A stretch of 64,000 nucleotides of DNA from Anaerolineaceae bacterium (GCA_040769645.1 JAXGKP010000002.1:10754-74753), one strand, 5' to 3'. Shown: positions 7,483 through 61,446, numbered from the stretch's first letter. The notes: generated by a model from the letters alone, not told the origin. A program made the numbers and translations.

Positions 7483-8340
7483 TCAGGCATCATCTGGCAG
7501 CGGGGACAGGGCCGTCTGTTCAAATTCCGTCAGGATTTCTCGCAAATAAACACGGGGAGAAAGGGTTTTATCGCGCGCCAAAGGGTTCAGGTCCATTGCG
7601 TACGCCACGGCGCGAGCGTTATCCACGGCGTTGGGTTCATCCATGGTGGCGTTGGCGGCGCGCCTGCCCGGAATCGCACGATCATAGCGTTTGCCGCTCT
7701 CGACCTGGGTGCCAAATACTTTCAAAAGTTCGCGCTGCAGCTCCAGGCGCTCAGAACAATCAAAAGCTATCCGAAAGCGCTCTGGCAGCCATTCCAAACC
7801 GCGCCAGACCTCGCAGCCGAAGACTCTTTCCGGGAGCATCGCTGCCGGCAGGCCGCGCAGCGCCTGAATAACGCGCCAGGCAGCCGCGGTATGAGTCGGG
7901 TGCGAATCTAACAGGCTGTGGGTATAAACCCAGCAGGGCCGCGCCATGATCAGCAGGCTGGCGAGGCTTTGCACGACCGCGTTTCTCTGGCGAATATCCT
8001 GGCTGGCATAATTCATGAAGACGAGCGCCCCATACCTGCCAATCCGGGCTGCGGTCTTTTGCTCTTCCTTACGCAAGGCGGCCAGCTGGTCGTCGCTCCA
8101 GGCGGCAAACTTACCCGCGCGCGGCGCGCCTCTGCCATCCGTGAGCACCACACCGCCAAAGACGCTGCCACCTTTGGCGTATCCTTTGAGGATGCCGTCT
8201 ATTGCCATGATTTCCAGGTCATCCGGGTGCGCGGCAATCCCCAGGTGCGTGATTGAAGCCAATAACTCCTGTTCAGCCGCCGCATCGGAGACAAGCTCCC
8301 CTGTTTCTGGCACATAAACTTCAAATATCGCTGCGCTCAT
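7483..8340 (-). CDS. PIG-L/LmbE-family N-acetylglucosaminyl deacetylase
   Basis: Motif THLGIAAHPDDLEIMAIDG (AHPDD zinc-binding signature of the PIG-L family). Confidence 0.75.
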   Translation of the reverse strand: MSAAIFEVYVPETGELVSDAAAEQELLASITHLGIAAHPDDLEIMAIDGILKGYAKGGSVFGGVVLTDGRGAPRAGKFAAWSDDQLAALRKEEQKTAARIGRYGALVFMNYASQDIRQRNAVVQSLASLLIMARPCWVYTHSLLDSHPTHTAAAWRVIQALRGLPAAMLPERVFGCEVWRGLEWLPERFRIAFDCSERLELQRELLKVFGTQVESGKRYDRAIPGRRAANATMDEPNAVDNARAVAYAMDLNPLARDKTLSPRVYLREILTEFEQTALSPLPDDA

Positions 8341-8371
8341 CCACCTTTTCTTCCGGTGTCAGGTGAGAAAA

Positions 8372-8405
8372 GCCAGGCGTGGGAAGATCGCACCCCGCGC
8401 CTGGC
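8372..8405 (-). terminator. rho-independent terminator after the PD40 lipoprotein gene
   Basis: GCCAGGCG...CGCCTGGC stem, followed on the minus strand by TTTTCTC. Confidence 0.55.
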
Positions 8406-8420
8406 ATTGGTAAGTTGTGG

Positions 8421-9632
8421 TTATAGGCCCAGGTCTCCGATTGAAAGCCTGCCCCAATCTACCGCGCTGTCGGAATACGCGTCGATAACAAAGGGAAGCA
8501 AGGTCCGCGTTTCGGACACTCTGTCGTAGACATAGACTTGGCGCACGCCGCCAAATTCCCGGGAATAAAGAATCCGGCTGCTATCCGGCGACCAGGCCAG
8601 GAATTCCGCGTTGCCGCTTTCCACCAGAAGCTGTTCGTGCCCATCCGGACTTATGAGGATGACCATATGCTCTGTGGCGGTCCTTTGCACAGGGTCAATC
8701 TCGACCAGGGTAAAGGCTATCATGCTTCCATCCGGAGACCATTCCTGGCGGATAGGCGCGGTATCTGAGCGGTTGTAAATCGTTATGGGGCTGCTCAGGT
8801 TGCTGCCGGCGGTATAGAGCGCGCTTTCCTCATAACCGTACATCTGCCACTGTCCGAACACCGTCCGGGAGCTATCGGGGGAGAAATCAATCGCGCCAAT
8901 TTGGAAGCTGAACGGCGGGCTTATCTGGTTGAGAGTAGGCAGATGCCAGACTGATTCGCTGCCGCACTCGGAATAACAGCCGCAGCTGTTGGCAACCAGC
9001 CACTGCCCATCGTTGGAGATGGTATTGACGAACTTCAAACCTCCGCCGATGTTGCCCAGATTGGTCGAGCTGCTCAGATTGGTCTGGTCATAGCGCATGA
9101 CGTTAAAGTTCAATAAGGATTGGTCTTCCAGGTTCTCGACAGGCGGGCAGGTCATATTCCCAAGCATGGTGAAAAACTGTCGGCCAACCCCGTTCCACTT
9201 GATGAACTTGCCGTAGGCGCTCATATCAACCTTCGTTCCGCTGGTGAAATCATTCATATAGCTGTTCTCACCTTTGATATACGCCAACACTGCTCCGTCA
9301 GGAGAAATTTCCGCTTTATTATAGGCATTCCCGTAATCCCCCGGCACGCCATCAAAGGTCAACTGCTCCAGGGTTCCCGAATCAACCAGATAGCGCCAGA
9401 GGTTAGCGTTGTATCGGAAAATAATTTGACCGTTCGGAGGAGCCAGCGCCTCAGTTGGCTCGAGGGTGGGTGTGGGTTCCAGGGTTGGCTCCGAGTGTTC
9501 TGTCGGTATGGCGGGCGGCAGGGTCGGGGCTTCAGTTGGGAGTTTTGGGATGAAAGAGGGAAAACAAGCCTGCAGCAAAAGCAGGCAAACAATAATCAGA
9601 AAGATTTCCAAGGGTCGGCGGCTGCGCATCAT
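8421..9632 (-). CDS. secreted lipoprotein with TolB-like PD40 beta-propeller repeats
   Basis: Signal/lipobox LLLLQAC, a Pro/Thr/Glu linker, and repeated SPDG/SPDS motifs (SPDGAVLAY, SPDSSRTVF, SPDGSMIAF, SPDGHEQLL, SPDSSRILY). Confidence 0.75.
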   Translation of the reverse strand: MMRSRRPLEIFLIIVCLLLLQACFPSFIPKLPTEAPTLPPAIPTEHSEPTLEPTPTLEPTEALAPPNGQIIFRYNANLWRYLVDSGTLEQLTFDGVPGDYGNAYNKAEISPDGAVLAYIKGENSYMNDFTSGTKVDMSAYGKFIKWNGVGRQFFTMLGNMTCPPVENLEDQSLLNFNVMRYDQTNLSSSTNLGNIGGGLKFVNTISNDGQWLVANSCGCYSECGSESVWHLPTLNQISPPFSFQIGAIDFSPDSSRTVFGQWQMYGYEESALYTAGSNLSSPITIYNRSDTAPIRQEWSPDGSMIAFTLVEIDPVQRTATEHMVILISPDGHEQLLVESGNAEFLAWSPDSSRILYSREFGGVRQVYVYDRVSETRTLLPFVIDAYSDSAVDWGRLSIGDLGL

Positions 9633-10555: not shown

Positions 10556-11029
10556 TTAGTCTTCTTTGGTAAGGGTGGACAGATAGAAGGTCAGCCCCAT
10601 CTGTTCCATCTTGCTCATTTCGGTCTCGATATAATCGATGTGGTCTTCTTCTTCCACCAGGATGGAATCGAGCAGTTCCTTGGTGCCGTTGTCGCTGGCA
10701 TCCACGGCCACTTTAATTGCGGCGTTGTACTTATCGATGGCTTCCTGTTCGGCAGCGTGGTCATTCGCGAAAATCTTGGGGACGTCCGCGCCAATATGGA
10801 TTGCCTTTAGGTTGCTTACAATCGGCACGCCTTCCAGGAACAGGATGCGGGCGATGAGCTTTTCGGCATGGCGCATTTCTGTAATGGCACGTTTTTCAAT
10901 CGTTTCATGCAGCACAGGGTAACCCCAGTCTTCAGCCATCTCGCCGTGAACCATATACTGGTTGATGGCGGTCAATTCATCCGAGAGTAAATCATTTAAA
11001 ACTTCCAAAACTTTCTTATTACCTTTCAT
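10556..11029 (-). CDS. bfr: bacterioferritin
   Basis: 157 aa. MKGNKKVLEVLNDLLSDELTAINQYMVHGEM...EMRHAEKLIARILFLEG...EEEDHIDYIETEM is a classic Bfr di-iron and haem-Met pattern. Confidence 0.92.
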   Translation of the reverse strand: MKGNKKVLEVLNDLLSDELTAINQYMVHGEMAEDWGYPVLHETIEKRAITEMRHAEKLIARILFLEGVPIVSNLKAIHIGADVPKIFANDHAAEQEAIDKYNAAIKVAVDASDNGTKELLDSILVEEEDHIDYIETEMSKMEQMGLTFYLSTLTKED

Positions 11030-11225: not shown

Positions 11226-14048
11226 ATGGCAAATATCGCATTGCGCGTCAACGGCAGTCCCTATTCCCTCCCCGAAGTTCCCAACGAAACGCTCGCGTCC
11301 CTGTTGCGCGAGCGTTTGCGCCTGACCGGCACCAAAATTGGCTGCGGCGAGGGGCGCTGCGGCATTTGCACGGTGCTGGTGGAAGATCAACCGGTTAAGT
11401 CTTGCTTGTATCCCGTTAAAAAAGCCGCGGGCAAGTCTGTCCTAACGATTGAGGGGCTGCGCGCGCTCTCCCCCACCCCAGGCAGCCCGCATCCATTGCA
11501 AGAGGCTTTCCTTGCCTACGGCGCGATACAGTGCGGTTTTTGTACGCCCGCGCAAATAATCAACGCTTACGCTTACCTTTTGAAGCACCCGGACCCGGAT
11601 TACGAAGCGTTGAAAGCCGCGCTCAAGGATGTGCTTTGCCGCTGCGGCGCCTACGAGTCAATTCTCCAGGCAGTCCTCACTGCCGCTCAAGTGATGCGCG
11701 GCGGAGGTCCCCTGCCCCTTCCACAAATCAGCCTGACGTCAACCGAAACCCGAGCAATCGGCACCCTGCATCCCAGACCCGACGCGAGTGCGAAAGCTGA
11801 CGGTTCTGCTGTTTTTACCGATGACCTGAGCTTCCCCGGCATGCTCTACGCCCGCGTACTGCGCGCGAACACGCCCAGCGCAATACTGCGCTCGCTGGAT
11901 ATCACCCAGGCTTTGGCGCACCCGGGCGTACGCGCGGTTCTCACAGCCGAAGACCTGCCCGCGGCCCGTCGGCATGGTTTGTTCATCAATGACTGGCCGA
12001 TTTTGGTCGGACAGGGAGAACGCATCCGCACCATGGGGGACGCCCTGGCCTTAATCGCCGCGGAAACCCAGGCAGACGCCGACTCCGCGCTAAAGCTTAT
12101 TCGGGTGGAATTGGAGCCCCTGCCAGTGTTTTCCACGCCCCACCAGGCACTCGCTCCTGAGTCAGCCCCGCTGCACGAAAACGGCAACCTGCTGAAACAT
12201 ATCAAGGTGCGCAAAGGCGATCCCGGGCTGGGTTTTAAGGATGCGGAAATAATCGTTGAGCACAACTTCTACACACCATTTACTGACCATTTGTTTATGG
12301 AACCGGAATGCAGCATTGCCGTTCCCCTTTCAGACGGACGCATGGAAGTGTACGTGGGTTCTCAGATTCCCTATTCTGACCGCAGCCAGGTTGCAGCCGC
12401 CCTGGGCGTTCCGGAAGAGCAGGTGCGCATCCGCGGGCAGCTTACCGGTGGCGGCTTTGGCGGAAAAGAGGATATCGCCGGGCAGATTCACGCCGCTCTG
12501 CTTGCCCGGGCGGCAGGCAGGCCGGTTAAGCTGCTTTTTAGCCGGCGGGAGAGCCTGCTGGTGCACCCGAAACGGCACGCCACCCAAATCCGGGTGAAAT
12601 TGGGCGCGCGCAAAAATGGGGTGTTGGTTGCCGCGGAGACGGAGCTGTATGGAGATACCGGCGCGTATGCTTCGCTTGGCGAGAAAGTGATGACGCGCGC
12701 GACAACACATTCCACCGGGCCGTATGTCATTCCACACGTGAAAGCCGACTGTTTCGCTGTCTACACGAACAACCCGCCAGCCGGGGCGTTTCGCGGTTTT
12801 GGTGTTTTGCAGTCCGCCTTCGCGGTAGAAAGCACAATGGACATCCTCGCGCATGCGCTGGGAATGGACCCACTGGAGCTGCGTAAGATTAACGCTTTGC
12901 ATGAAGGCAGCCTGACCAATACCAATCAGCTGCTGGAAAACAGTGTTGGTTTACCAGATTGTCTTGAAGCGGTTGAACAAACCTTGCGTCAAGTGGCTGG
13001 TACAGAGCCATTTGCGCCCAAATCTCACACCCGCGCCGGAAAACAGTACTTGCGCTGCTGGGGGGTGGCGGCAGCTTACAAAAATACAGGTTTGGGAAGC
13101 GGCGCGGACGATGTCGGGGCTGCTGACGTTGAATTGCAATTGAACGGCAGGCTGCAGGTGCGCACTGCCGCGGCGGAAATCGGGCAGGGTTTGGTTACCA
13201 CCCTGCAGCTCATCGCGGCGGAGGTGTTCGCGCGAGACCCTGAAGACGTGGATGTGTTGGTTATGGATACCGACCTCACGCCCGACAGCGGCCCAACAAC
13301 GGCATCACGCCAGACGTTTGTGACTGGCGGGGCGGCTTTGCTTGCCGCTAAAGAGCTCAGGCAGCACATTCTGACGTACCTGGCTGTGCTCTGGAATGTG
13401 GAACCAGGGGTGATTTCCTTTAATGCTGAAGGCGCCCGTTCTGAGCTGCCTGAAATGACAGCCGCGGCTTACACGCATAGAATGCGCTGGGACGAAATCG
13501 CCGCGCTCATGGAGGCGAGCCCAGCCGGCCGGTCTATCCGCCGCGCGTATCACGCGCCGGAGACCAGCCCGCTCGGCGAAAGTGGGCCGATTCACTTTGC
13601 TTATTCATTCAGCGCGCAAGCGGTCGAGATTGAGGTGGAACTGGAGAGCGGCAGGGTACGGGTGCTACGGGTAATATCCGCCAATGACGCCGGGCGCGTG
13701 CTGAATCCCCTGGGCTTTCAGGGGCAGGTAGAAGGCGGGGTAATCATGGGTTTAGGGCACGCTTTGATGGAAGAATTCCGCGTGACCGGAGGCGTCATTG
13801 AATCCGATCGGATGGCACGCTGCCCAATCCCGCGCATGTCAGACAGCCCGCAGGTAATTTCCATCCCCGTAGAACATCCTACGGCCGAGGGTCCCTTCGG
13901 CGCCAAGGGCGTCGGCGAAATTGTTTGCATCCCGACCCCGCCCGCGATCGCAAACGCGCTGTACAACGCGATTGGGCTGCGGGTGTTCCGCCTGCCCATT
14001 CGACCGGAGGAAGTACTCGCTTTCCTGCAAGAGCACCCGCGAATTTAG
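11226..14048 (+). CDS. MOP-type aldehyde oxidoreductase / xanthine dehydrogenase family protein (fused 2x[2Fe-2S] + molybdopterin-binding domains, no FAD domain)
   Basis: 940 aa. N-terminal CGEGRCGICTV and CGFCTP...CRCGAY cluster motifs are followed directly by the aldehyde oxidase/XDH a/b-hammerhead and Moco domains (GGGFGGKE, GPYVIPH..., AGAFRGFG, GEIVCIPTPPAIANA). Length and layout match Desulfovibrio gigas MOP (about 907 aa). Confidence 0.85.
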   Translation: MANIALRVNGSPYSLPEVPNETLASLLRERLRLTGTKIGCGEGRCGICTVLVEDQPVKSCLYPVKKAAGKSVLTIEGLRALSPTPGSPHPLQEAFLAYGAIQCGFCTPAQIINAYAYLLKHPDPDYEALKAALKDVLCRCGAYESILQAVLTAAQVMRGGGPLPLPQISLTSTETRAIGTLHPRPDASAKADGSAVFTDDLSFPGMLYARVLRANTPSAILRSLDITQALAHPGVRAVLTAEDLPAARRHGLFINDWPILVGQGERIRTMGDALALIAAETQADADSALKLIRVELEPLPVFSTPHQALAPESAPLHENGNLLKHIKVRKGDPGLGFKDAEIIVEHNFYTPFTDHLFMEPECSIAVPLSDGRMEVYVGSQIPYSDRSQVAAALGVPEEQVRIRGQLTGGGFGGKEDIAGQIHAALLARAAGRPVKLLFSRRESLLVHPKRHATQIRVKLGARKNGVLVAAETELYGDTGAYASLGEKVMTRATTHSTGPYVIPHVKADCFAVYTNNPPAGAFRGFGVLQSAFAVESTMDILAHALGMDPLELRKINALHEGSLTNTNQLLENSVGLPDCLEAVEQTLRQVAGTEPFAPKSHTRAGKQYLRCWGVAAAYKNTGLGSGADDVGAADVELQLNGRLQVRTAAAEIGQGLVTTLQLIAAEVFARDPEDVDVLVMDTDLTPDSGPTTASRQTFVTGGAALLAAKELRQHILTYLAVLWNVEPGVISFNAEGARSELPEMTAAAYTHRMRWDEIAALMEASPAGRSIRRAYHAPETSPLGESGPIHFAYSFSAQAVEIEVELESGRVRVLRVISANDAGRVLNPLGFQGQVEGGVIMGLGHALMEEFRVTGGVIESDRMARCPIPRMSDSPQVISIPVEHPTAEGPFGAKGVGEIVCIPTPPAIANALYNAIGLRVFRLPIRPEEVLAFLQEHPRI

Positions 14049-16376: not shown

Positions 16377-16578
16377 GCTTACATGGGATTGCTGGCGCCT
16401 GAATGCACGCCCAGCGAGCGGCGGGTCGTATTATCCTTAGAGTTGCAATAACAATGCCAGCACTGGAAGCTCATGTTTCCGCGGCTGGAGCTGGCATTTA
16501 GATACCTGGTAGGTTTTCACGACCTCCCTAGGCAGAATCAGGGAGTATCAAGGTCTCGCGAATAGGGGTCTTGCCCGC

Positions 16579-23732: not shown

Positions 23733-24218
23733 TTAGTTGGGCTTATCGGGCAAATCAGCTTCGTATTTTGATGGACATTTCAGGAGCAGTTCGCTCACCT
23801 GAAAAACGCCATTTTTGTCCAGGGCGCCGGTCATAATCGCCTGGGCTTCGTCTTTCAGAAGGTCGGGCCGGGGTCCTTTGTAATGCACGGTCATCTTTGG
23901 CAGGTTTGGGTCATGCGCAGCCTGCGCGAGCACTACCGACATCCCACCCATTGCTTTAATGAGCTTGTGGTCACCCGGAATCTGGGCGACTTCAAAGCTA
24001 AGGTCCAACGTTTTTGGGTCATAAGAAATCGTATCGCCCAGCACAACCCCGGAAACGCGAAGGTTTTTTCCGACGAGTTCGGCTTGACCGGATTTCAGTT
24101 CCTCAACCGTCATAAAGTATTGCGACTGTGACAAAGTGGAACTGATAACAAGGTATAAGAGCGCAGCTGTAATCACCACAATGCCAATGATAAGCTTAAT
24201 ATTTTTCTTTGTTTTCAA
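23733..24218 (-). CDS. ccmE: haem chaperone CcmE, variant with Cys in place of the haem-binding His (CxxxY)
   Basis: The ORF track extends to 24383, but a TTG at 24218 preceded by GAGGTG gives MKTKKNIKLIIGIVVITAALLYLV (membrane anchor) plus an OB-fold region (NLRVSGVVLGDTISYD). The C-terminal motif is LLLKCPSKYEAD, with the CPSKY codons at 23763-23777. Confidence 0.8.
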   Translation of the reverse strand: MKTKKNIKLIIGIVVITAALLYLVISSTLSQSQYFMTVEELKSGQAELVGKNLRVSGVVLGDTISYDPKTLDLSFEVAQIPGDHKLIKAMGGMSVVLAQAAHDPNLPKMTVHYKGPRPDLLKDEAQAIMTGALDKNGVFQVSELLLKCPSKYEADLPDKPN

Positions 24219-24383
24219 GTAATTTAACACCTCAAATAAAATGGGCTTTATTGTAGTTGATATTATACATTTATGGGTGTCAACCCATATCCGTGTAGAC
24301 CTCTGAAAACAGTTCCGCGGCCCGCCCTTGCCCATTGAAGGCGGCGCTGGAACGCGCCCCAGGTCAAATCGCTTTTCGCGCAA

Positions 24384-24402
24384 GAATATGTCATTTTGAG
24401 AC
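24384..24402 (+). repeat. orphan copy of the 33-bp repeat core found at 29268-29422
   Basis: AATATGTCATTTTGAGAC lies in non-coding DNA between the parB terminator and ccmE. About 20 of 23 nt are identical to repeat 3 of the array. Confidence 0.7.
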
Positions 24403-24572
24403 TATAGTTTTTTGCAGGAATGCCTATGCGCATTATTCGTCGTTCAGCGGAATGCGCTTACCCGGGCTTTCAGTAGCTCCGGCCTACCGATACACCCGAT
24501 ATCCCGCACCCACTCTCAGTTTGTACGCAATGGGTTGAAAGAATACTCGTTCCAGCCAGAATGGGTAAATAA

Positions 24573-24624: not shown

Positions 24625-25767
24625 CTATCGCAGGCTGCCCAGGCGCTGTTTAACCGCCTTGGTTAACTCCTCCAGATGCGTCATCAGGCGTTGGACCTCT
24701 TCTTTGTCGGATTCACTGACCAGCGCGTCCGCAAGGGAGCCGATTTTGTCATCCTGCGGCAGTTCATCCACGTTCAACAAAACGCGTTTGAGTGAGCGCG
24801 CCGATTTGGTCGCCGGGTCAGCTGGCAGTCGTACCGCGCGTTGTTTTTCGCGCCCGCAAGCACGTTCCAGGAAGGAATGCACATCCTGATAGGTGCGTCC
24901 TTCGTGTTCCGCGTAGTATGCCACCGCGCCCGCCCAGTATTGCGGGTCGTACGCCATAATTTCTCTTAACACTCTTTCCGGCATCTCGGCCCGGTCGCAG
25001 ATTTCCAAGAGGTTTTCCGGCAGTTCAAAAAACTTCATCAATCGTCCGTAGTAGGTGCGTTCCAGCTGCAGGGTTTTCATCAGCACATCGCGGGTCTCAT
25101 CACTCAGGCGCACCTCACCAATTTTCCGAAAGAAAGCAAACTCATCTTCCTCATTTCCGGGTTTGATGTTATTTGCCTCCAAGACCATACGAGCCGCCGC
25201 GCGTGCTTTGCCCACCGGAGTCAGAGCCTTATAGGCCATATTCTCCGCGATTTGCTTCTCGAGACTGGGCTGATTGTCAATCAGGGCGAGCACGTACGGT
25301 TCCTCTTCCAACCCTTCGCGCACCGACTTGAGGGCGGTGGCCCAGAACCGTCTTTCGCCGGTCAGCATCTGGAATATGTCCCTGCCCTGGATGTTGATTA
25401 CCTGCCCGGTAACCGGTTTGATTTGCCCGGTATCGTGAAGGGAGTCCCCCAACGCGATAAGTTCTTCAATTTCGCGTCGGATAAGTCGGTCGTGTTCAGC
25501 CAGCTTAAGCCACCTGCGCACGGTCTCCGCCCATCCGGCTTTTTGGGAAAAGAAATCTTCCCGCAATTCATACGGCAGCATAAAGCGCGCCTGAAAACGG
25601 TCCGGCCGGATCATGGAAAGCGGCACGCGGTATACACTTTGCCGGTTGTTCACCATCTTTGGAGCATCTTCCGGGTAAGACGCCTCAGATTCAGCCGTGC
25701 TGGCTCCAAACGCGGTGGTCGTAATATTAATTAAATCTCCAAAACCTTTTTTCTTTGGTTCAGCCAT
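24625..25767 (-). CDS. ParB/Srx-family N-terminal-domain protein (atypical ParB, 380 aa)
   Basis: VPLSMIRPDRFQARF plus the arginine-patch-like LTGERRFWATAL. AAAGGAAG RBS. Directly downstream of parA. Confidence 0.75.
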   Translation of the reverse strand: MAEPKKKGFGDLINITTTAFGASTAESEASYPEDAPKMVNNRQSVYRVPLSMIRPDRFQARFMLPYELREDFFSQKAGWAETVRRWLKLAEHDRLIRREIEELIALGDSLHDTGQIKPVTGQVINIQGRDIFQMLTGERRFWATALKSVREGLEEEPYVLALIDNQPSLEKQIAENMAYKALTPVGKARAAARMVLEANNIKPGNEEDEFAFFRKIGEVRLSDETRDVLMKTLQLERTYYGRLMKFFELPENLLEICDRAEMPERVLREIMAYDPQYWAGAVAYYAEHEGRTYQDVHSFLERACGREKQRAVRLPADPATKSARSLKRVLLNVDELPQDDKIGSLADALVSESDKEEVQRLMTHLEELTKAVKQRLGSLR

Positions 25768-25804: not shown

Positions 25805-25820
25805 TGTGCCCATGGGCACA
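25805..25820. repeat. 16-bp perfect palindrome TGTGCCCATGGGCACA (copy 1), candidate parS-like site
   Basis: Located in the 87-bp parA-parB spacer. The 22-nt block CAAACTGTGCCCATGGGCACAC is identical to the one at 28015-28037. Confidence 0.6.
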
Positions 25821-25854: not shown

Positions 25855-26685
25855 TTATGCCTGCCCTAATTTACCCAGGACGGCATCCACCAGATTTGAA
25901 AAACAGCGGTAGGCTTGCGACTTTTCGGGACAATACGAAAACACATCAAACCCCGCTGTCGTTGCCGCCGAAATCTCCGCCAGATCTTTGATGTACGGCA
26001 AAAGCAGGTGCCCATACATGCGTTCCATATCGCCGATTACATCACGGGATTGCCGTCGGATCATCCGAAACCGGGAAGGAATAATTCCCAGAATTTTTAG
26101 GTCGGGATTGGTGTTTTTATGGACGCCTTCAATCATTCTCAGAATATCTGCCAACCCAATCAGACTTAAGCCGTCGGGTTCAATTGGAATTAAAACATGG
26201 GTGCTTGCCACCAGCGAGTTCATGGGCACAATCCCGGCTGATGGGGGGTTGTCGATGATGATGTAGGAGTATTCGTCCTTAATGGATTCCAGGAAATACG
26301 TCAGCTGGAAAGCAGAATCTTCACGGGTTTTCAAAGCGGCTTCCAAGCCTTCCATGCGGGTCTTGTTTGTGCGGAAAAGGCGGACCTTATCTTCACGCTT
26401 GCGCGGCAATAAGGAGTTGCTGATAATCGATTCAGAAGCTCCATACCCGTTTGCCAGGGCGTTCGGAAAGTTATTCTCCGCCGTGATCAGCGGGACAAAT
26501 TGGTCGTCCAATCCGCCTCCCATCGCGGTGATTGTGGCGCTCAATTGATCATCCATATCAATCAGCAACACCGGCCTGCTGCGCGCCTTGCGGGATTCGT
26601 AGATTGCCAGCCCAGCTGCCAGGTTGATGCTGATAGTGGATTTTCCGACGCCGCCCTTCCGATTAATCAAAGATATAATTGCCAT
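25855..26685 (-). CDS. parA: ParA/Soj-family partition ATPase
   Basis: Deviant Walker A NRKGGVGKSTISINLAAG, 276 aa, AAGGAG RBS. Confidence 0.88.
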   Translation of the reverse strand: MAIISLINRKGGVGKSTISINLAAGLAIYESRKARSRPVLLIDMDDQLSATITAMGGGLDDQFVPLITAENNFPNALANGYGASESIISNSLLPRKREDKVRLFRTNKTRMEGLEAALKTREDSAFQLTYFLESIKDEYSYIIIDNPPSAGIVPMNSLVASTHVLIPIEPDGLSLIGLADILRMIEGVHKNTNPDLKILGIIPSRFRMIRRQSRDVIGDMERMYGHLLLPYIKDLAEISAATTAGFDVFSYCPEKSQAYRCFSNLVDAVLGKLGQA

Positions 26686-26783
26686 AAGCGCTCGCGCTCC
26701 TTTTCCATGAAATCAAGCTCTTAGTTATTTTACATTACTTTTTGTCTTTTTCAAGTTATTCCTGAATATTGATTGTAATTTCC

Positions 26784-26812
26784 TTCTCAGTTACCTAAAG
26801 TGAGCATATAAT
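26784..26812 (+). promoter_or_regulatory. candidate promoter in the AT-rich divergent region
   Basis: TTCTCA, 17 nt, TATAAT, about 65 nt upstream of the AAA+ gene. Confidence 0.3.
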
Positions 26813-26877
26813 ATTATGCACTTGACTTAATTCAACGCGCATGCTAACCTGTTAGTACATATAAGGAGCCGCAGCCT

Positions 26878-27684
26878 ATGATTTCTTCAATGGATTTACT
26901 CTCTTCTGGTTTGCTTGAGCACCCGTTTTTATATTACCCGGATACCCGCTTTTTTTATCCACAAATTGCTGAGCAGCGCCGTGTTCTTGAAGTTGCCTCC
27001 AGCTTTATTATGGACGAAAAGGATCCTTCAAAGAACCTGGGGGTCATCGCTGGAACGGTAGGCAGCGGGAAAAGTATGCTGGCGATGAAACTCGCCGCCA
27101 CGCGTTTCCTTGCCAGTTCACGCGGCTCAGTCCTGGGTTTGTACATGAATACCAATACGGTGACCGAACCCCGTCATTTTCTGATGGCGGTGATTGAAAC
27201 CTTAGGTCTCCCCTCCGCGCGTTCCAATGCCAACCGGATAGACAGCATATTGGACTATTTGGATGAGCATGACGATGAGTTGCTGCTGGTATTAGACGGC
27301 CCGCCGGTGGATCAGGAATATCTGACCCAACTGTTGTCCTGGTCTGTGGAACACACAAAGAAAATCCGAACGCTTATTTTTCTGCAGGACCTTAATAACA
27401 CAACCAGCAACATTGGCAGTCTTAATCAATTCCTCGGCTTGTATGTTCCTTTTCGGGCTCCCAGCCTGCAAGAGATTGCCAGTCTGCTTTACGGTCGGAT
27501 GAAGATGGCCGGTTTATTGGACCCGCTGACGCTTCTGCCGGAAATTGCCGCGTTGGAAATCGCTGAACAAGCCCGGGGTTCGCTTACCAACGCGCTGGCA
27601 CTATCCAAAACGTATCTTGAGGAGCAAATTGAGCTTCGGAAAAATCGTCTGCTCATTCCGGATATCAGTTTACGCGGCTTCTGA
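26878..27684 (+). CDS. ExeA/TniB-like AAA+ ATPase (AAA_22-type)
   Basis: N-terminal HPFLYYPDTRFFYPQIAEQRRVLEV matches the ExeA-type lead-in. Walker A GTVGSGKS, Walker B LLLVLDG. Confidence 0.7.
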   Translation: MISSMDLLSSGLLEHPFLYYPDTRFFYPQIAEQRRVLEVASSFIMDEKDPSKNLGVIAGTVGSGKSMLAMKLAATRFLASSRGSVLGLYMNTNTVTEPRHFLMAVIETLGLPSARSNANRIDSILDYLDEHDDELLLVLDGPPVDQEYLTQLLSWSVEHTKKIRTLIFLQDLNNTTSNIGSLNQFLGLYVPFRAPSLQEIASLLYGRMKMAGLLDPLTLLPEIAALEIAEQARGSLTNALALSKTYLEEQIELRKNRLLIPDISLRGF

Positions 27685-27790: not shown

Positions 27791-29950
27791 ATGATGAACT
27801 CGGATGGTAATTCCTGGCCGGACATTGAAGCGGCGTTGATCGCGACGCAAGACCCTGATCTTGCCCGGTTGTTGGATTCTTCCGATGTTACCTATAACGG
27901 CGCCTATCAACTTTCCGCGCCTCCCAGGGTATATGCCAGCCTCTGCCGTTATTACCCTATGATTGAAACCGTAGTTCAAGACCTGACCGGGAAGCAGTTC
28001 CAGCTTTCGCTCTCTCAAACTGTGCCCATGGGCACACTTCCACCTGATTCTGATGAGGCGGTTGACGAAGGTTTGATGAGTTTTGATCTGAGCTCTGCGG
28101 ATGTGACCGAAGCCATCCTGGCACCGGAATCCATCGCTGCAATTCCATCGTACACACTGCGGTTTGTTCCTTATGTCGGGTCGAGCGCGGTGTTAATCGC
28201 GAGCGCCTTGCGGCAGGCTTTTTATCGGCGTTCCCGGGAACACGGCGCTGACCAACTTTATCCCCGTCAGGGAGACGCGGTCACCATTGATGTGGACAGG
28301 CTGTTACAAATGCTCGGACGCGTATTCAGCCGGGCGACCTTCTTTCGCGTCTTTAAAAGCGGGGCTATGGATTGGTTCGTTCGTCGGGCAGACCCCGTTC
28401 ATCGCTTTGTGAATGGCAAGGTAATCCGCCAGGCGAATACCTATACTTATCGCGGTCTTCTGCTGACCCCCGGAGACGCGCAGGACCTTTTTGAGTGGCT
28501 TGTGAAATCGGGCGCCACCGAGGAACCGGCCGAAGCCCTCAAATTATCCATAGAGACCCCCAGAGATCAGATTTTGACCTTTCCTTACCGGGTTCCGGAT
28601 CCATTGCGAGATAAACGATTTGATTCTGCGGTTTCGGTGCATGAGGTCCTTCAATCCGTCATGGGAGCCTCCCGCCTGACCCCCGCGCTGGCTGGATTGT
28701 GTGACCGGCTTTCAGTTCATCTTATCCGCCCCGAAAGCTTTTTGGCTGTTCCCTGGTATTGGTTTCATCGCGTGCTGCCGGATCTTGGCGCCGATCTTGG
28801 AGTGCTTTATTTGATGAGTAAAAACTGTTGTTATATTGACTGGGCGCGCGGAAAAGATCGCAGCACTTTTTGGGTTTCCGGAGGGATGACAACCCTTCAA
28901 AAGTGGATCGGTTCTGAAACTTTGCCTGCTCGTATTCCGCATCAAAATCCAAGTTCCCGCGGGCGGCCGCGTAAGGAACAAGTGAGCGTGGAGTCGCAGT
29001 ATACCCGCGATTGGCGCGCGGCAAACCGTAAACTTGCCAGCCAATATCTTTGCCGGGTGGCAACCCGAGCTGGTAATAACGGCACCGACTGGCAGCTTCG
29101 GGTTGAAGAGGTGCGGCTTACGGCTTCGGATGAAATTCTTAAAGGCGCTTTGTATAGTTTCTTGCTTGGGGAGCACAGCGTACAAGCCTTGGAGGCGATC
29201 CGCGCTTTTTCTGCCGAGCCGCTTCTCAGACAGCTTTTATTGAACGCTTTACGCCTTGATCCCGTTCAAATTAGTCATTATGAGACCTTAGTAAAGCACG
29301 ATATTTGTCATTCTGAGACCTTAGCTGCTGATCAAATATGTCATTTTGATACTTTGGCAGACAGCCTAAATTGTCATTTTGAGACCCTTGTCCGAGCCGA
29401 TATTTGTCAATTTGACACGATAATTAAAATACTTATCAGACTCAAAGATTCCGCATTATTTCCAAATATGGCTAACCAACCAGATACAATCGCGGATCAA
29501 TCGACCGCGGTAATTGAAACCAATGAGGTGGTGGGTTATTTTACCGGAGCTGAATGGGATTTTGGCGTGATTTTGGAGAGGATTAATCCCAAATTGCGTG
29601 AGAGATTACTTACACCCTCACATCAGTCAAGGTTTCTTTCCTGGCTCATTTACGGCTGCTTAACTGATTCCATACACAGTCCGTTGAGTTTTGCGGTAAG
29701 CCGCACTTTGGAAAGCGCGGGCGATGCTGGCGGACCTGCCGTACGTTTGGCTGCCTTGCCCGCCGCGCAATTAGCCGGCCTTCTTTGGGATGAGCGACTG
29801 CGCGTTCAGGCGGGATACATCGGCAGAAACGTTTTCGCCCAAACCGGCGCGGAGGACCTGGAAGCGCTGCTGCTTTCAGCACCCGACAGCGCTAGCCGAA
29901 GCCGACTGCTCCAACGCGCGCTGGATGCGCTGGGTGTTCGGGCAGCCTAA
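27791..29950 (+). CDS. large hypothetical protein with two RepA_N/DnaD-like winged-helix-looking segments and an 11-residue Cys-His repeat block
   Basis: 719 aa. FLAVPWYWFHRVLPDLGADLGVLYLMSKNCCYIDWARGKDRSTFWVSGGMTTLQKWIG and RFVPYVGSSAVLIASALRQAFY...VTIDVDRLLQMLG resemble replication-initiator N-terminal domains; this is pattern recognition only. The repeat block is ISHYETLVKHD ICHSETLAADQ ICHFDTLADSL NCHFETLVRAD ICQFDTIIKIL. Confidence 0.55.
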   Translation: MMNSDGNSWPDIEAALIATQDPDLARLLDSSDVTYNGAYQLSAPPRVYASLCRYYPMIETVVQDLTGKQFQLSLSQTVPMGTLPPDSDEAVDEGLMSFDLSSADVTEAILAPESIAAIPSYTLRFVPYVGSSAVLIASALRQAFYRRSREHGADQLYPRQGDAVTIDVDRLLQMLGRVFSRATFFRVFKSGAMDWFVRRADPVHRFVNGKVIRQANTYTYRGLLLTPGDAQDLFEWLVKSGATEEPAEALKLSIETPRDQILTFPYRVPDPLRDKRFDSAVSVHEVLQSVMGASRLTPALAGLCDRLSVHLIRPESFLAVPWYWFHRVLPDLGADLGVLYLMSKNCCYIDWARGKDRSTFWVSGGMTTLQKWIGSETLPARIPHQNPSSRGRPRKEQVSVESQYTRDWRAANRKLASQYLCRVATRAGNNGTDWQLRVEEVRLTASDEILKGALYSFLLGEHSVQALEAIRAFSAEPLLRQLLLNALRLDPVQISHYETLVKHDICHSETLAADQICHFDTLADSLNCHFETLVRADICQFDTIIKILIRLKDSALFPNMANQPDTIADQSTAVIETNEVVGYFTGAEWDFGVILERINPKLRERLLTPSHQSRFLSWLIYGCLTDSIHSPLSFAVSRTLESAGDAGGPAVRLAALPAAQLAGLLWDERLRVQAGYIGRNVFAQTGAEDLEALLLSAPDSASRSRLLQRALDALGVRAA
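28021..28036. repeat. 16-bp perfect palindrome TGTGCCCATGGGCACA (copy 2)
   Basis: Lies inside the 5' part of the 719-aa ORF, with the same 22-nt block as at 25799-25821. Confidence 0.6.
29268..29422 (+). repeat. five tandem 33-bp repeats (iteron-like) inside the 719-aa ORF
   Basis: GTCA(T/A) cores at 29274, 29307, 29340, 29373 and 29406 give an exact 33-bp period. The core is roughly AT(T/A)TGTCATTTTGAGAC. The stretch is locally AT-rich. Confidence 0.85.
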
Positions 29951-30570
29951 ACTGCTTGCGCGCATAAACCTCTTCGGTCAGATGGATGGATGGCCGGGGA
30001 GAACAACACCCTAGGTTTAATTAATATGTAAGAGGGACGACCCCGGGCGCGAGGTTTGGAAGACAAAGGCTGAATATCACCCGCCTGGATAAAACCGATT
30101 GGCAAAAAAACTGACGAGATAAATACGGAATGATAAGCTCTCATTCAGGGTAAACCAATGAGGTGGAAAAGATTGGGGCGTGCTTCATTGTAGGCTGCTG
30201 CCTCCCAACGTTTGATAAGCAGAGAATTACAATCCAGGCATAAGAGAGTGCGAATTGGATATCAATCAGGGGAGAGTCATCGAACCGGTGGACGTGCCCA
30301 ACCGCCTTGCAACAGGGCCACCAGCTGCCTGATGATTATCTAGTTTCATTCTCTATACGCATTGCGCGTAGAATAATAACAGATTACCTCCTTTACGAGG
30401 GGTGTGTCCATGAAGTATCAGCTGCCGCGTGCCACGAACGGTGATAAAAAAAGCATCACTGTAATAGGATTGCGCATAGCATAATATCCCGTCTCTTTGT
30501 CACGCAAACGCTGGGGTGGGGGAGGATGTATGCGCTATAATTCCACAAAACAAGAAATCTTGGAGGCAGT

Positions 30571-49417: not shown

Positions 49418-52400
49418 TCAAGCATGTCCCATTAATTCAGTAAACAGCGTCTGGGTCTCCGCCGAAACCCCACTGCCAATTTCCCGGTTCAGGGTTTGCT
49501 GGCACTGCTGAAAAACTTGCAGCACGCTGCCCGGGTTTCCCATCCGGTGGTGAATGAGCATCAGACTGCGGTATGCCGGCTCCCAGAGCGCGTCCCGGCT
49601 GAGCAGAGTCCGGCTGTAGTTCAGCGCTTTCTCCCATTCATCGGACTTTATCGCGACCTGAATTAGCTGGTCCATCGTGTGCAGATAACGCTCGTGGTAA
49701 TACTGCCCTTCCGCGACAAAATATTGCCCGACTGCCTCGTTCTCAAAATAGCGCCCATGGTAGAGCTGGACGGCTGATTCCAGCAAGCTCGTGACCCCCG
49801 ACCGGCTAAGTTGGTCAAAGCGTACGGCATCGATGCTGATGCCAGCATTCGGGTTGAGCATATATTGGCTTCCGCGCCGCAGAACGAACACCGGCTTTTT
49901 CCCTTCCGGCCTGTCCGGTTCGAGCGCCTGATTCAGACTGCTAAGAGTTACCTTCAGATTATTTGAGGCGGTGGCTGGTTCTGCGTCGGGCCAGAGGAAC
50001 AGGGTCAGTTGGTCGCGGCTCAACCACCTGCCAGCGTTGCCAACCAGAATCTGCAGAAGCTGGCGCGCTTTTTCCCGCTTCCAGTCGGCGGTATCCAATA
50101 GTTTACTGCCGCGCCAGACGGAAAATTCGCCGAAAGTTCTGATGCGCAGGGTGTAACCCGGGTGATAATCCAGGTTTTCTGCTCCGATTTCCTCCAGAAT
50201 TTGCTGCGTGAGGGCTGGTTGAATTCCCTGCAGCCTGGCTTGCAGCAATAGTGGCAAAAAGACCATCGGGTTATCCCCGCCGAGCATGGTTGGTTTTGTC
50301 AGCAAGAATTGATAATGATGCTGATTGATCAGCGCCAATCCTTGTTCCAGGTAAAGCCACAGCGAGCTTTCGTAGCCCTGATGGAGCGAACAGTACCCCA
50401 ACCACAACAGCGCGGCCGACCGGGAGAGGTCATCGCCCGCGCGGGCGGCAATCGATTCCGCGATTGAAAGCTCCAGATTGGCAGCCTCATATTGACCGGA
50501 TAGCGCCAGACTGGCTCCCAGCGAGAGCCGGACCAACATGCCTATCCAGATATCCCCGGAACTGTTGGCGATGGAAAGAGCTTGCTCCGCGACTTTGCGG
50601 GCCTCTTCCTGCCGGCCGGAAAAGCCAAGCAGGCGGCACATTCCCCATAGGGGTTCCACATGGATGCGGGCGATATCCACACCAACCATGGATTCCTGGT
50701 ACAGGCTGATGATTTTCTTATACTCATGCTCATCTTCGTCAAACGAGCGGCTAAGCTGGAGCGCGTGTCCGAGGCGCATAAAGCCGACGCTGCGCACAAA
50801 CACAGACCGGTAGTGATGCCCGAGTTCAATTCCGCGCCGTGCATAGTTGAGGGCGATATCAGGTTCGCCGCAGAATGAATAGAACAATGAGAGCAAGAGT
50901 GAGGCCTCACGGTGAAACCGCTGTGGTCGGCTCATTTGATCAAAATCGGCTGTGGGTTCCAGCTTTTGCAGGAGCTCTATGCCTTCGGGGATGCGTCCGG
51001 TGCGCAAAAACAGGCGCGCCTGGATGAAATCGTTTTCATCTGAATCGCCGTGTGAAAGCTCCCTGGAACGCTGCAGGCTTTGCTCCGCCTGTTCCATATC
51101 GCCCTGGTTAACCTGATTCTCTGCCATCTGCGTCAGCAATTCCGCCACCTCCAGCCGGTTCTCCGCCGGATCCAGAAGGGCAAGCGCGCGGTGTAAAAGC
51201 TGGTTGGCATTGATTGGTCGGATAGTGTCCAGATAGACTTGCGCTTGCCCGCGCAGGGCAAGGCTGATGCCCCATTGGTGGTTGTCCCGCTGATAAGCAC
51301 GCTGGGCGGTGCGATAATCCTCCAGCGCGAGTTCAAAGAAACCGTTGTATCGGTTCACTTCGCCCAGGAGGAAGTTCACGTAAGGGTACAAAGCCCGCTG
51401 GGATTCCGGAAACTGTTCAATCCAATAGCGCAGGCTTTCATGGCGGTTTGTGAGAATAAAATCCTTCCCGACGTTTTCCAGAATGAGATTAATTTGCGGA
51501 TAGTCCCCAACCTTCAGGAGATGCCCGACAGCGCTTTCCCAATATTGATGCGCGGCGAAGTAGCTGCCAATTTTCCGGTGCAGCTCGCGCTCCAGGCCGG
51601 CATTTTTACTCAGACGGCTCTCCAGAAACTCCCGGAACATATGGTGATAACGATAAACCCCCGGGCGCAGCTGCTCCAAAAACAGACCTGAGCGGTAAAG
51701 CTCGTTCAGGATGTCAATGCTGTTCTGGCTGTCCATCAGAAAATCACAGGTTTCGGTATCCAGGAATGACAGGATAGAGGTTCTGACCAGAAAATTCTGG
51801 TACGCGGGCGCCTGGTTTTCCAGCACTTCCTCCGCCAGATAGGCAAAAAGGTTTTTGCGCGATTCGCTTTCCTCTCTAAGCGTTTCCATAACCGTCCCCT
51901 GCGTTTGCCCCTTGATGGACTGCCAGACCATCTGCAAACCGATAACCCAACCCTCCGTGCGTTGGATGAGCTGTTCCACTTCTTCCTGGCTTAGCTGCAG
52001 TTGATATTGGGAATGGAACAGCGTTTCCACTTCTTCGGGGGTGAAGGTCAGCTCGCGCTTGCCGAGTTCGAGCACGGTGCCCTTGGCGCGCCAGCGATGA
52101 ATGGAAGGGAAGTCGAGCGCGCGGCGCGTGGAGAGGATGACATGTAAAGAACGGGGCAAATGATCGATAAACCAGTTCAGCAGGTTCAGAATTGCCGGGG
52201 AATTATCAATGTATTGCACATCGTCCAAAATCAGGAGGCAGCGGTCGGGTATCCGGTTGGCAATCGCGTTCACGAGCGCGATAAGTCCATCCGTAGGTTC
52301 CGAATCTGGCGTGTTCAGGATGCGCAGAGCTTCCGCACCCATTCCATAGGAATGCTGATTGAAGGCTGTATAGAGGTTCATCAGGAACAAGGTAGGGTCG

Positions 52401-52624
52401 CGGTCATCGGCAGACACGGAAAACCAAAAAACCGGGAAATCTAATGGTTCAATGAACGTCAGCAGAGAGGTGCTTTTGCCGTAGCCTGTACCGGCCTGAA
52501 GGATGGTAAGCGGGTATTGCAGAGAGCCGCTCAGCAGCGAGGTGACGCGCTCCCGGGGGAGGATGTTTGAGCGCTGCGCGGGCGGCGCCAGCCGGCTGAG
52601 GATGATAAGGCTGCGGTTGCTCAT
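49418..52624 (-). CDS. STAND (MalT-like) NTPase - TPR - C-terminal winged-helix/BTAD transcriptional regulator
   Basis: 1068 aa. Walker A GTGYGKST and Walker B LILDDVQ, then long TPR-like helical repeats. The C-terminus has IRTFGEFSVWRGSKLL (OmpR-type wHTH) plus a BTAD segment (WEPAYRSLMLIHHRMGNPGSVLQVFQQCQQTL). Confidence 0.8.
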   Translation of the reverse strand: MSNRSLIILSRLAPPAQRSNILPRERVTSLLSGSLQYPLTILQAGTGYGKSTSLLTFIEPLDFPVFWFSVSADDRDPTLFLMNLYTAFNQHSYGMGAEALRILNTPDSEPTDGLIALVNAIANRIPDRCLLILDDVQYIDNSPAILNLLNWFIDHLPRSLHVILSTRRALDFPSIHRWRAKGTVLELGKRELTFTPEEVETLFHSQYQLQLSQEEVEQLIQRTEGWVIGLQMVWQSIKGQTQGTVMETLREESESRKNLFAYLAEEVLENQAPAYQNFLVRTSILSFLDTETCDFLMDSQNSIDILNELYRSGLFLEQLRPGVYRYHHMFREFLESRLSKNAGLERELHRKIGSYFAAHQYWESAVGHLLKVGDYPQINLILENVGKDFILTNRHESLRYWIEQFPESQRALYPYVNFLLGEVNRYNGFFELALEDYRTAQRAYQRDNHQWGISLALRGQAQVYLDTIRPINANQLLHRALALLDPAENRLEVAELLTQMAENQVNQGDMEQAEQSLQRSRELSHGDSDENDFIQARLFLRTGRIPEGIELLQKLEPTADFDQMSRPQRFHREASLLLSLFYSFCGEPDIALNYARRGIELGHHYRSVFVRSVGFMRLGHALQLSRSFDEDEHEYKKIISLYQESMVGVDIARIHVEPLWGMCRLLGFSGRQEEARKVAEQALSIANSSGDIWIGMLVRLSLGASLALSGQYEAANLELSIAESIAARAGDDLSRSAALLWLGYCSLHQGYESSLWLYLEQGLALINQHHYQFLLTKPTMLGGDNPMVFLPLLLQARLQGIQPALTQQILEEIGAENLDYHPGYTLRIRTFGEFSVWRGSKLLDTADWKREKARQLLQILVGNAGRWLSRDQLTLFLWPDAEPATASNNLKVTLSSLNQALEPDRPEGKKPVFVLRRGSQYMLNPNAGISIDAVRFDQLSRSGVTSLLESAVQLYHGRYFENEAVGQYFVAEGQYYHERYLHTMDQLIQVAIKSDEWEKALNYSRTLLSRDALWEPAYRSLMLIHHRMGNPGSVLQVFQQCQQTLNREIGSGVSAETQTLFTELMGHA

Positions 52625-61190: not shown

Positions 61191-61446
61191 TTCAGTTCCT
61201 TATGGAGCATTTTCGTAATATTTTTTTAGAATTTTTCTGGCTGCTGGGTTCGGACTAGGTAATCCGAATGATCTTATGCACAGCCAAAACAACACGCATC
61301 GGGTTGTGTGCGGTGGTAAGCCCTTAAATTCTTCACCGCGTTCAGAATGGCAGCGCTTATGCACCCTGAGCGGAGGTGAAGGGTCTTGCCTGTTCAGGCA
61401 ACTTCGGTTGCGCGCCTGGCTGCAGACCAGATGCCAATCGCGGTTG

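Follow-up and report, generated by a model that had tools for sequence, protein, structure and literature searches.

Replication sites that lie inside the gene of their own initiator have been described for plasmids: in pSK41 the Rep boxes occupy a central position in rep and encode a linker that is dispensable (PMC5703833), and in repABC replicons oriV is located inside repC (PMC3155836). The locus considered here comes from an Anaerolineaceae bacterium (GCA_040769645.1, JAXGKP010000002.1:10754-74753) and was analyzed as a single stretch of 64,000 nucleotides (nt), hereafter the window, with positions counted from its first letter. The window carries a cassette of four genes, encoding a divergent ParB-like protein, a ParA-family ATPase, a AAA+ ATPase (AAA22) and a 719-residue protein (P719), and the coding sequence of P719 contains five direct repeats of a site that we designate M1. 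We consider it likely that this array forms part of an iteron-type origin of a theta-replicating plasmid or chromid, embedded in the gene of its own initiator, P719.

Members of the Chloroflexota, notably the Anaerolineae, are dominant in anaerobic digesters and in many sediments. To our knowledge, nothing is known about the replication of large extrachromosomal replicons in this phylum, and we know of no genetic tools for it.

The M1 array and the codons that encode it

The M1 site has an extended consensus of 17 bp, ATWTGTCATTTTGAGAC, and occurs five times on the same strand at a period of exactly 33 bp. In a pattern search, words resembling TGTCATTTTGAGAC were located on the plus strand at 29273 (2 mismatches), 29306 (1), 29339 (1), 29372 (0) and 29405 (2), and P719 reads the five repeats as ISHYETL, ICHSETL, ICHFDTL, NCHFETL and ICQFDTI. 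A preliminary description of this DNA had reported five repeats with a GTCA(T/A) core at an exact 33-bp period in a coding region, which both the sequence and the pattern search confirm, all five lying within the P719 open reading frame (ORF). The arrangement is that expected of iterons, namely at least three direct repeats of about 17-22 bp at an integral helical-turn spacing, 33 bp corresponding to three turns. Apart from the array and one additional copy discussed below, the 64-kb window contains no further word at two or fewer mismatches; the two words with three mismatches, at 16492 and 17505, do not exceed chance, since 5.1 words with up to three mismatches are expected in the window. 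Tandem Repeats Finder, run on the window, did not call the array because the 16-nt spacers between the cores are unrelated to one another; M1 is an array of sites and not a simple tandem duplication.

The array is richer in A+T (63%) than the P719 gene as a whole (47.5%), and the 60 nt that follow the last repeat reach 71% A+T in the window and a mean of 74% in 61 orthologues, with 40-nt windows peaking at 78%. In this following stretch, which begins with GATAATTAAAATACTTATCAGACTCAAAGATT, the rare isoleucine codon ATA is fixed in 57 of 57 genes and the lysine codon AAA in 51 of 51. Base composition thus points to this segment as the place where the DNA could be unwound.

For the codon comparison, 66 orthologous genomic loci were fetched, and the repeats could be read codon by codon in 62 of them; the orthologues derive from Anaerolineaceae metagenome-assembled genomes (MAGs) and are 47-98% identical to P719. 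The 11-residue repeat is kept in all orthologues, together with position-specific variants (CQNETL in repeat 2, LNxYFETL in repeat 4 and CQFDTI in repeat 5). In the repeat cores, cysteine is encoded by TGT in 253 of 253 instances, histidine by CAT in 146 of 147, phenylalanine by TTT in 244 of 246, glutamate by GAG in 191 of 200, asparagine by AAT in 47 of 47 and tyrosine by TAT in 88 of 88; elsewhere in the same genes, the same codons make up 32%, 53%, 54%, 35%, 50% and 55%, respectively. The isoleucine codon ATC is never used in the cores and accounts for 49% of isoleucines elsewhere in these genes. The third positions of threonine and leucine, which lie just beyond the word, are free to vary. 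An internal control drawn from the same phylogeny comprised the 326 alignment columns in which the amino acid is conserved; a near-fixed codon was found in 21 of these, 15 of which lie within or just after the array, and five of which belong to a palindrome (M3) described below. Codons are fixed in the cores and variable in the control columns, which indicates that selection acts on the nucleotide word rather than on the peptide; the peptide ICHFETL is for the most part carried along with the DNA. Synonymous-site conservation inside the repeats was the check that the preliminary description had named for its view that iterons or operator sites account for the array better than a purely protein-level repeat. 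The near-invariance of these sites across 62 orthologues, with both codons in use for the same amino acids elsewhere, supports that view, as does the conserved copy outside the gene.

A repeat that binds metal through its cysteine and histidine residues, which the same description had raised as a caveat, is rejected by the homologues. The Cys-His pair is not kept in their repeats (e.g., LISDFETP, SNFETF and LGAFETQ), both residues are absent from the plasmid homologue described in the next section and from most distant relatives, and the periods among homologues range from 8 to 22 residues. The pair is therefore a by-product of the word TGTCAT and not a metal site.

The same picture extends to distant relatives. 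Nearly all distant full-length homologues have tandem repeats at the corresponding relative position, with unrelated peptides and periods of 8, 11, 15, 16, 18, 21 or 22 residues, and across the family alignment codons 494-543 of 719 alone vary between lineages in both sequence and period. From metagenomes, 80 distant loci were fetched using an alignment of the closer subset as the query, and the 42 that bear the gene were examined for a period in the DNA. The periods were 21, 22, 24, 33, 45 (2 x 22.5), 48, 66 (3 x 22) or 69 (3 x 23) bp, so that the array units measure approximately 21-24 or 33 bp, about two or three helical turns. Each lineage has its own word, such as TGGCGCGAnTGACACC, GGTGACGCGATTTTCAG or CTGGACGCAAATGG, and A+T-rich DNA of the TTTAAA type follows the arrays of these relatives. 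In the distant locus L126 (6045-6179; similarly in L143, 3907-4064), seven 22-bp units of TGAGACTCnnTTnnnGGAAAAG lie inside the ORF but off the codon phase: 22 is not a multiple of 3, and the peptide therefore repeats only every 66 bp. Such an out-of-phase array is a clear natural demonstration that the arrays are DNA elements. A conserved placement combined with changing words and periods reads as the signature of iterons that co-evolve with their binding protein, the encoded peptide being carried along.

The cassette at the GC-skew origin of a complete plasmid

A tblastn search of 72,556 plasmids with P719 yielded a single match (E 5e-49), to the complete circular plasmid of Chloroflexota bacterium ZRK35 (CP069395.1, 179,736 bp; here plas-ZRK). 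This plasmid carries homologues of all four genes of the cassette (Table 1), and its annotation lists no other replication or partition gene. Plotted cumulatively, its GC skew forms a clean V that reaches its global minimum at 102-106 kb, where the cassette lies, and peaks roughly opposite, at about 18 kb; the homologous cassette thus sits at the GC-skew origin of a complete plasmid. The P719 homologue of plas-ZRK contains 33-bp-spaced repeats of (T)TAATTTCCnnnTTTGAAACACCGG, four of them at three or fewer mismatches and a fifth more degenerate, followed by A+T-rich DNA. In the window itself the lowest cumulative GC skew falls at 27-28 kb, although 64 kb is too short for this to be decisive. 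Thirteen of the 46 window ORFs have homologues on plas-ZRK, including a bacterioferritin (58% identity, beside the cassette on the plasmid), a 1068-residue AAA/TPR/BTAD regulator (49%, full length) and sugar ABC-transporter genes, and this suggests that the window is part of a related secondary replicon.

The order of the four genes is constant across loci, and the outer flanks vary. The preliminary description had proposed that the repeated sites bracket a ParAB-AAA-Rep-like cassette, and this is borne out by the conserved gene order, the protein homologies, the fold of AAA22 and the plas-ZRK cassette. In nearly all distant loci a parA-family gene adjoins the P719-like gene. The ParB_N match of the window's ParB falls below the Pfam cut-off (21.8 against 26.3 bits). 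Two short contigs with an Anaerolineaceae cassette, 57-71% identical to P719, are assigned to other organisms, a 'Bathyarchaeia archaeon' (L011, JAXDAO010000043.1) and a 'Saccharibacteria' (L019, CAZYTH010000077.1); binning contamination is the most likely reason for their placement. Two copies of the cassette in one MAG (AnMBR.bin307; loci L006 and L008) are probably due to a mixture of strains.

When 1.84 billion representative proteins were searched with a profile (E <= 1e-3), P719 was placed in a family of 303 clusters of 50% identity, and every name recovered for its members is 'hypothetical protein'. The orthologues of P719 align with the distant members over the full length in hhalign (probability 100%, E 1.9e-84). 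Among 30 distant members sampled, 27 match Pfam DnaA_N (best 1.6e-12) and several match winged-helix or helix-turn-helix families (HTH_36, HTH_24, HTH_Crp_2); by tblastn, the distant member P0240 matches the N-termini of bona fide DnaA proteins. The AlphaFold2 (AF2) model of P719 (predicted local distance difference test, pLDDT, 79) begins with an alpha-alpha-beta-beta-alpha-alpha-beta unit as in DnaA domain I and shows a weak fold match to the DnaA N-terminus 2jmp (E=5), DnaA_N not being detected directly in P719. By way of its distant members, P719 may be assigned a DnaA_N and winged-helix character. Bac_DnaA and Bac_DnaA_C were absent from P719, its orthologues and the distant relatives searched, the AAA+ module being a separate gene. 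No match to RepA_N (PF06970) was obtained for P719, for 28 orthologues or for 30 distant relatives when E values up to 0.1-1 were allowed; Pfam and fold searches of P719 gave no DDE or rve signal, and no cluster of DnaA boxes was found at the cassette. A shorter protein shares only the N-terminus: on the complete 212-kb plasmid of Leptolinea sp. HRD-7 (AP024711.1; positions 7944-8831), a 295-residue hypothetical protein shows 44% identity to the superfamily over 89 residues, in the DnaA_N-like part, with a Soj/ParA gene 6 kb upstream. It may represent a shorter type of initiator built on the same N-terminal module.

The AF2 model of AAA22 (pLDDT 85) extends no further than the lid helices, stopping near residue 256 of 268. 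Its top Foldseek matches in the PDB are archaeal Cdc6/Orc1 (2qby_A, 2e-7), yeast Cdc6 (7tjh_I), 2v1u_A, Drosophila Orc1 (7jgr_A) and 1w5s; the Orc1/Cdc6 matches range from 2e-7 to 1e-6, with PCH2, RFC and TnsC following within about one to two orders of magnitude, and the profile-to-PDB match to Cdc6 is weak (E=0.024). Unlike Orc1/Cdc6, the model has no C-terminal winged-helix domain. On its best fold match, AAA22 would be an Orc1/Cdc6-like ATPase module.

The orphan site and the other cassette motifs

A sixth copy of M1, hereafter the orphan, lies 4.9 kb from the array, on the far side of parB. An exact 14-mer of the word is found at 24389-24402 on the plus strand, between the parB terminator (24605-24573, minus strand) and a ccmE-like ORF, as part of the longer site ATATGTCATTTTGAGAC (Table 1). 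The preliminary description had placed a copy in the intergenic region between parB and ccmE, in the same orientation as the array, and had noted that it reads ICHFET in one frame. Both observations hold; its extent needs correction, as the 18-mer AATATGTCATTTTGAGAC occupies 24385-24402 and not 24384-24402. The ccmE ORF (23733-24383, minus strand) is extended by the mechanical call to a TTG at 24383 that abuts the orphan; the CcmE domain begins only at residue 88, and the true start is probably further downstream, so that the orphan would be intergenic rather than located at the ccmE start codon.

Among the 50 orthologous loci with at least 6 kb of DNA upstream of the array, 45 contain exactly one extra M1 copy, 4.6-8.5 kb upstream of the array; it is identical at 14 of 14 positions in 40 and on the same strand in 43, being inverted in L055 and L065. 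All of these copies lie on the far side of parB, and their flanks cannot be aligned between loci except for the word itself and a second motif, M2. A single, mostly exact copy in unrelated flanks argues for a conserved cis-acting site rather than a decaying gene fragment, and the orphan can be regarded as a sixth M1 site. The expectation that iterons or operators, but not a peptide repeat, would have an intergenic copy is met by this distribution; the accompanying caveat, that the orphan might be the relic of a duplicated gene, is not sustained, as a decaying relic would not remain at 14/14 in 40 species. From its occurrence, the site appears to be specific to the clade of the window.

M2 has the consensus (G/A)GCTAYGCGCATTAAT, with the longer form CAyCTACyAAGTGGCTAYGCGCATTAAT in L038, and its copy near the orphan reads GCCTATGCGCATTATTC and is offset by +36 nt from the start of the orphan M1, a spacing seen again in many loci. 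M2 brackets the cassette in inverted orientation, being on the plus strand at the parB side and on the minus strand past the P719 stop. Most loci have 1-4 copies about 96 nt apart, and some genomes have arrays of 15-16 copies at 115-120 bp. An accessory centromere, fork-polar sites and a loading site are candidate roles for it. Downstream of its M2 array, one Anaerolineaceae MAG (L025) has an unrelated tandem repeat at 11856-12417, with units of about 151-152 bp and at least 3.5 copies before the contig stops.

M3, TGTGCCCATGGGCACA, is a perfect 16-bp palindrome present in every locus in 2-4 copies per cassette. Its intragenic copy occupies the same position in every locus, corresponding to a low-confidence loop of the AF2 model; at this point (SVPMGT, window 28019-28036) five adjacent codons are fixed across 57 genes and represent five of the six near-fixed columns outside the array. 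Further copies often stand beside the orphan and sometimes after P719. The palindromic form and the distribution make M3 the likely parS of the divergent ParB. In plas-ZRK, the palindrome TTTGCCACGTGGCAAA occurs in four copies, only in the cassette, and shares the CACGTG core of canonical parS. In one sub-clade (L013, at 704/740/798, L015, L017, L039, L044, L045, L054 and L059) the three motifs form a node of fixed spacing, with M2 at +36 nt and M3 at +94 nt from M1; the lineage of the window has only M1 and M2 at the orphan. Such a node suggests a composite element controlling replication and partition.

The divergent promoter region that separates parA from AAA22 is strongly conserved across 61 loci, and nowhere in the cassette is the A+T content higher (82%). 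For AAA22 and P719, the promoter boxes are ACTTGACTTAA and, after about 17 nt, TGCTAAnCT; the parA promoter on the opposite strand has ATTTTACATTA...CAAG. An inverted repeat, CAGTT-N6-AACTG, lies between the two divergent promoters and is a candidate operator. Rfam gave no match and no tRNA gene was found in the window.

Table 1. Positions of the cassette genes, candidate sites and homologous features (window coordinates unless a plasmid or locus is named).
Feature	Position	Strand	Remarks
P719, putative origin-binding initiator hosting the array	27791..29950	+	719 aa
M1 array, five candidate iterons	29270-29286, 29303-29319, 29336-29352, 29369-29385, 29402-29418	+	P719 codons 494-543
A+T-rich stretch, candidate DNA-unwinding element	29419..29479	+	directly 3' of the last iteron
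Orphan M1 site	24386..24402	+	non-coding, ~170 nt past the parB terminator
M3 copy 1, candidate parS	28021..28036		inside P719 coding sequence, codons V-P-M-G-T
M3 copy 2, candidate parS	25805..25820		parB-parA spacer
M2 site near the orphan	24422..24438	+	
M2 sites after the P719 stop (region 30351..30481)	30362-30370, 30470-30478; overlapping copy 30354-30362	-, -; +	intergenic
M2 arrays in other loci	L025 9270-11546; L038 3873-5851; also L031, L036		
AAA22, AAA+ ATPase	26878..27684	+	268 aa; co-transcribed upstream of P719; Pfam AAA_22 1.2e-6
ParA-family partition ATPase	25855..26685	-	Pfam AAA_31 1.1e-35, CbiA; present in every locus
ParB-like protein, divergent	24625..25767	-	380 aa; ParB_N 2e-4; Spo0J 1vz0 1.2e-5
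Divergent promoter region parA/AAA22	26686..26877		61-locus alignment and promoter scan; conserved -35/-10-like boxes
Window ORFs with plas-ZRK homologues	10556-11029, 49418-52624, 59499-63683	-, -, -	
plas-ZRK ParB	102049-103218	-	annotated 'ParB N-terminal domain-containing protein'; 40% identity to window ParB
plas-ZRK ParA	103248-104081	-	48% identity
plas-ZRK 271-aa protein	104240-105055	+	32% identity to AAA22, E 3e-42
plas-ZRK 739-aa P719 homologue	105416-107635	+	28.6% identity, 92% coverage

Proposed mechanism, alternatives and relation to known systems

In the mechanism that we propose, P719 would comprise a DnaA-domain-I-like N-terminus, winged-helix DNA-binding domains, the repeat-encoded linker and a C-terminal domain, and would bind the five in-phase M1 sites through the winged-helix domains. 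Together with the co-transcribed Orc1/Cdc6-like ATPase it would build a nucleoprotein complex that opens the A+T stretch 3' of the last iteron, and the DnaA-domain-I-like module would recruit the host helicase. The divergent ParA/ParB pair would segregate the replicon, with the M3 palindrome serving as the centromere. The sixth iteron beyond parB, situated by M2 and often M3, would most likely be a control site, at which looping or pairing with the array (handcuffing) limits initiation or couples it to partition; by analogy with the extra-origin iterons of P1, F and Vibrio chromosome 2, we put this role forward as a tentative suggestion. The pairing of each protein with its site, the unwinding at the A+T stretch, the recruitment of the helicase and the part played by the orphan are what we infer from the arrangement as a whole.

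Several observations weigh against this proposal. Searches of P719 against Pfam, NCBIfam and PDB sequences returned nothing usable, a Foldseek search of the PDB with the full-length model gave no match at E < 0.001, and the DnaA_N and winged-helix character is assigned through transitive homology. M1 is assigned to P719 by inference, and ParB, the AAA+ protein or a host factor could bind it instead. The repeat-encoded region is confidently helical in the AF2 model (pLDDT 85-92), and the peptide may be more than a mere linker. The orphan is absent from plas-ZRK, and the search for it in distant loci was mostly negative, with one possible copy in L117, so that it would be dispensable to the basic mechanism. 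Left/right differences in GC skew are weak in the 22-kb orthologous loci (19/26), and the window has no strong gene-strand switch, the change of orientation being local only. The cassette of a relative lies on a contig of 392 kb in ERZ25039527, which makes that replicon at least 392 kb long, and the replicon carries housekeeping-type genes such as glnA and ccm; the cassette could be a plasmid origin integrated, and possibly silent, in a chromosome.

Other functions can be envisaged for the sites themselves. A partition centromere of the sopC/parC type, bound by the divergent ParB or another adaptor, would fit a cassette that encodes ParA and ParB and an orphan that adjoins other candidate partition sites; several plasmid centromeres are direct-repeat arrays, and B. 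subtilis has a parS inside spo0J. The form and distribution of parS are, however, already provided by the separate M3 palindrome, which occurs between parA and parB, beyond parB and within the cassette, and its plas-ZRK counterpart has the CACGTG core. Moreover, the array stays in the P719-like gene even in distant loci that have, in place of ParB, an unrelated protein of about 200 residues, and an A+T-rich stretch follows it, which leaves the centromere a small though not negligible probability. A small probability also attaches to sites that are purely regulatory, acting as DNA operators or roadblocks, or as protein-binding sites in the mRNA, to autoregulate P719 with no role in initiation. 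Initiators commonly autoregulate through their own sites, and because orphan and array share a strand in 43 of 45 loci, the site might be read strand-specifically or in the RNA. Yet the orphan lies past the parB terminator and antisense to that gene, neither a promoter nor flanking sequence is conserved around it, and it is inverted in two loci; the periods of the arrays follow the helical repeat of DNA (21-24 or 33 bp) and not codons, there is no Rfam match, and the homologous cassette is located at the GC-skew origin of plas-ZRK. Autoregulation could in any case coexist with origin function.

A domesticated transposon or integrative element is very unlikely. Such an element would call for an AAA+ protein of the TnsC/TniB/MuB kind, DNA binding by P719 in the manner of a transposase, and M1 and M2 as the sites bound at its ends. 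TnsC does occur among the fold matches of AAA22 (7m99_A, 1.2e-5; 7plh_A) and M2 flanks the cassette in inverted orientation, but Orc1/Cdc6 ranks first and P719 lacks a DDE or rve signal. Array and orphan are direct rather than inverted, each genome has one cassette with partly conserved flanks across 66 species, and on plas-ZRK the cassette coincides with the skew origin. Scarcely credible is a tandem repeat selected at the protein level, whether as Cys/His metal ligands or as a structural 11-residue unit, with the likeness of the DNA due to recent duplication or concerted evolution and the orphan as a relic. The peptide is conserved with its position-specific variants, the model has confident helices in this region, and the orphan reads ICHFET; against these stand synonymous sites fixed across lineages at 47-70% protein identity, a divergence that excludes recent horizontal copies of one sequence. 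In addition, cysteine and histidine are not conserved, period and sequence are lineage-specific, the L126 repeat is out of frame, and the orphan is exact in 40 species with unrelated flanks.

Given an origin inside the P719 gene, a wider proposal can be made, towards which we lean with rather more confidence than doubt. P719 and its AAA+ partner would form an undescribed and widespread two-component initiator, a split DnaA/ORC-like system with the origin inside the coding sequence of the initiator, that maintains large secondary replicons (180 kb to more than 390 kb, some of them probably chromids with housekeeping genes) in Anaerolineae and other Chloroflexota; in the clade of the window, the extra iteron beside centromere-like sites would couple the control of initiation to partition. 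A literature search found nothing relevant on DnaA loss in Anaerolineae, chromids in Anaerolineaceae, the P719 family or the strain ZRK35 plasmid, and we regard P719 as an undescribed initiator family. The cassette would provide a replicon-typing marker for megaplasmids and chromids of Chloroflexota in metagenomes and a candidate minimal replicon for shuttle vectors. It would also be a new example of dual coding, in which an origin with three distinct protein-binding motifs constrains the codons of its host gene, and it carries a warning for annotation, since a conserved peptide repeat may reflect sites in the underlying DNA. An initiator whose AAA+ motor is encoded apart from domain I of DnaA and from the DNA-binding part would bear on the kinship of bacterial and archaeal/eukaryotic initiators.

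With DnaA/oriC and archaeal Orc1/Cdc6, the cassette would share a DnaA-like domain inventory, here split over two genes (domain I and DNA binding in P719, the ATPase in AAA22), and repeated binding sites beside an A+T-rich element. It differs in that P719 has neither the Bac_DnaA AAA+ domain nor domain IV, AAA22 has no winged helix and the locus has no DnaA-box cluster. Chromosome 2 of Vibrio cholerae (parAB2 - ori2 - rctB) likewise combines a large, lineage-restricted winged-helix initiator without obvious sequence relatives, short direct-repeat arrays with regulatory sites beyond the minimal origin, and a neighbouring parAB with parS that cross-talks with replication control, on a secondary replicon with housekeeping genes (see the review PMC6090056). 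The RctB sites, in contrast, are intergenic and not inside rctB, RctB has no DnaA_N module or AAA+ partner, and no sequence homology to RctB was detected.

Like the cassette proposed here, the repABC cassettes of alphaproteobacterial plasmids and chromids unite ParA, ParB, parS and an initiator, with oriV in the initiator gene (PMC3155836), and maintain large low-copy secondary replicons with metabolic genes; P719, however, is not homologous to RepC. The RepA_N theta replicons of Firmicutes (pSK41, pSK1, pAD1, pLS32) resemble the present locus in having iterons central in the initiator gene, in a variable linker between a conserved N-terminal part for DNA binding or oligomerisation and a C-terminal part (PMC5703833; also PMC3155836), and their repeat sequences vary between family members. 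In contrast to these replicons, the cassette has no RepA_N domain, P719 has 719 residues against about 320 and a putative DnaA-domain-I-like N-terminus, and a separate, co-transcribed Orc1/Cdc6-like ATPase is present, in Chloroflexota hosts and on replicons of at least 180-390 kb. Membership of the RepA_N or repABC families thus fails, but the working principle matches, and by analogy the Anaerolineaceae cassette bears a functional resemblance to both.

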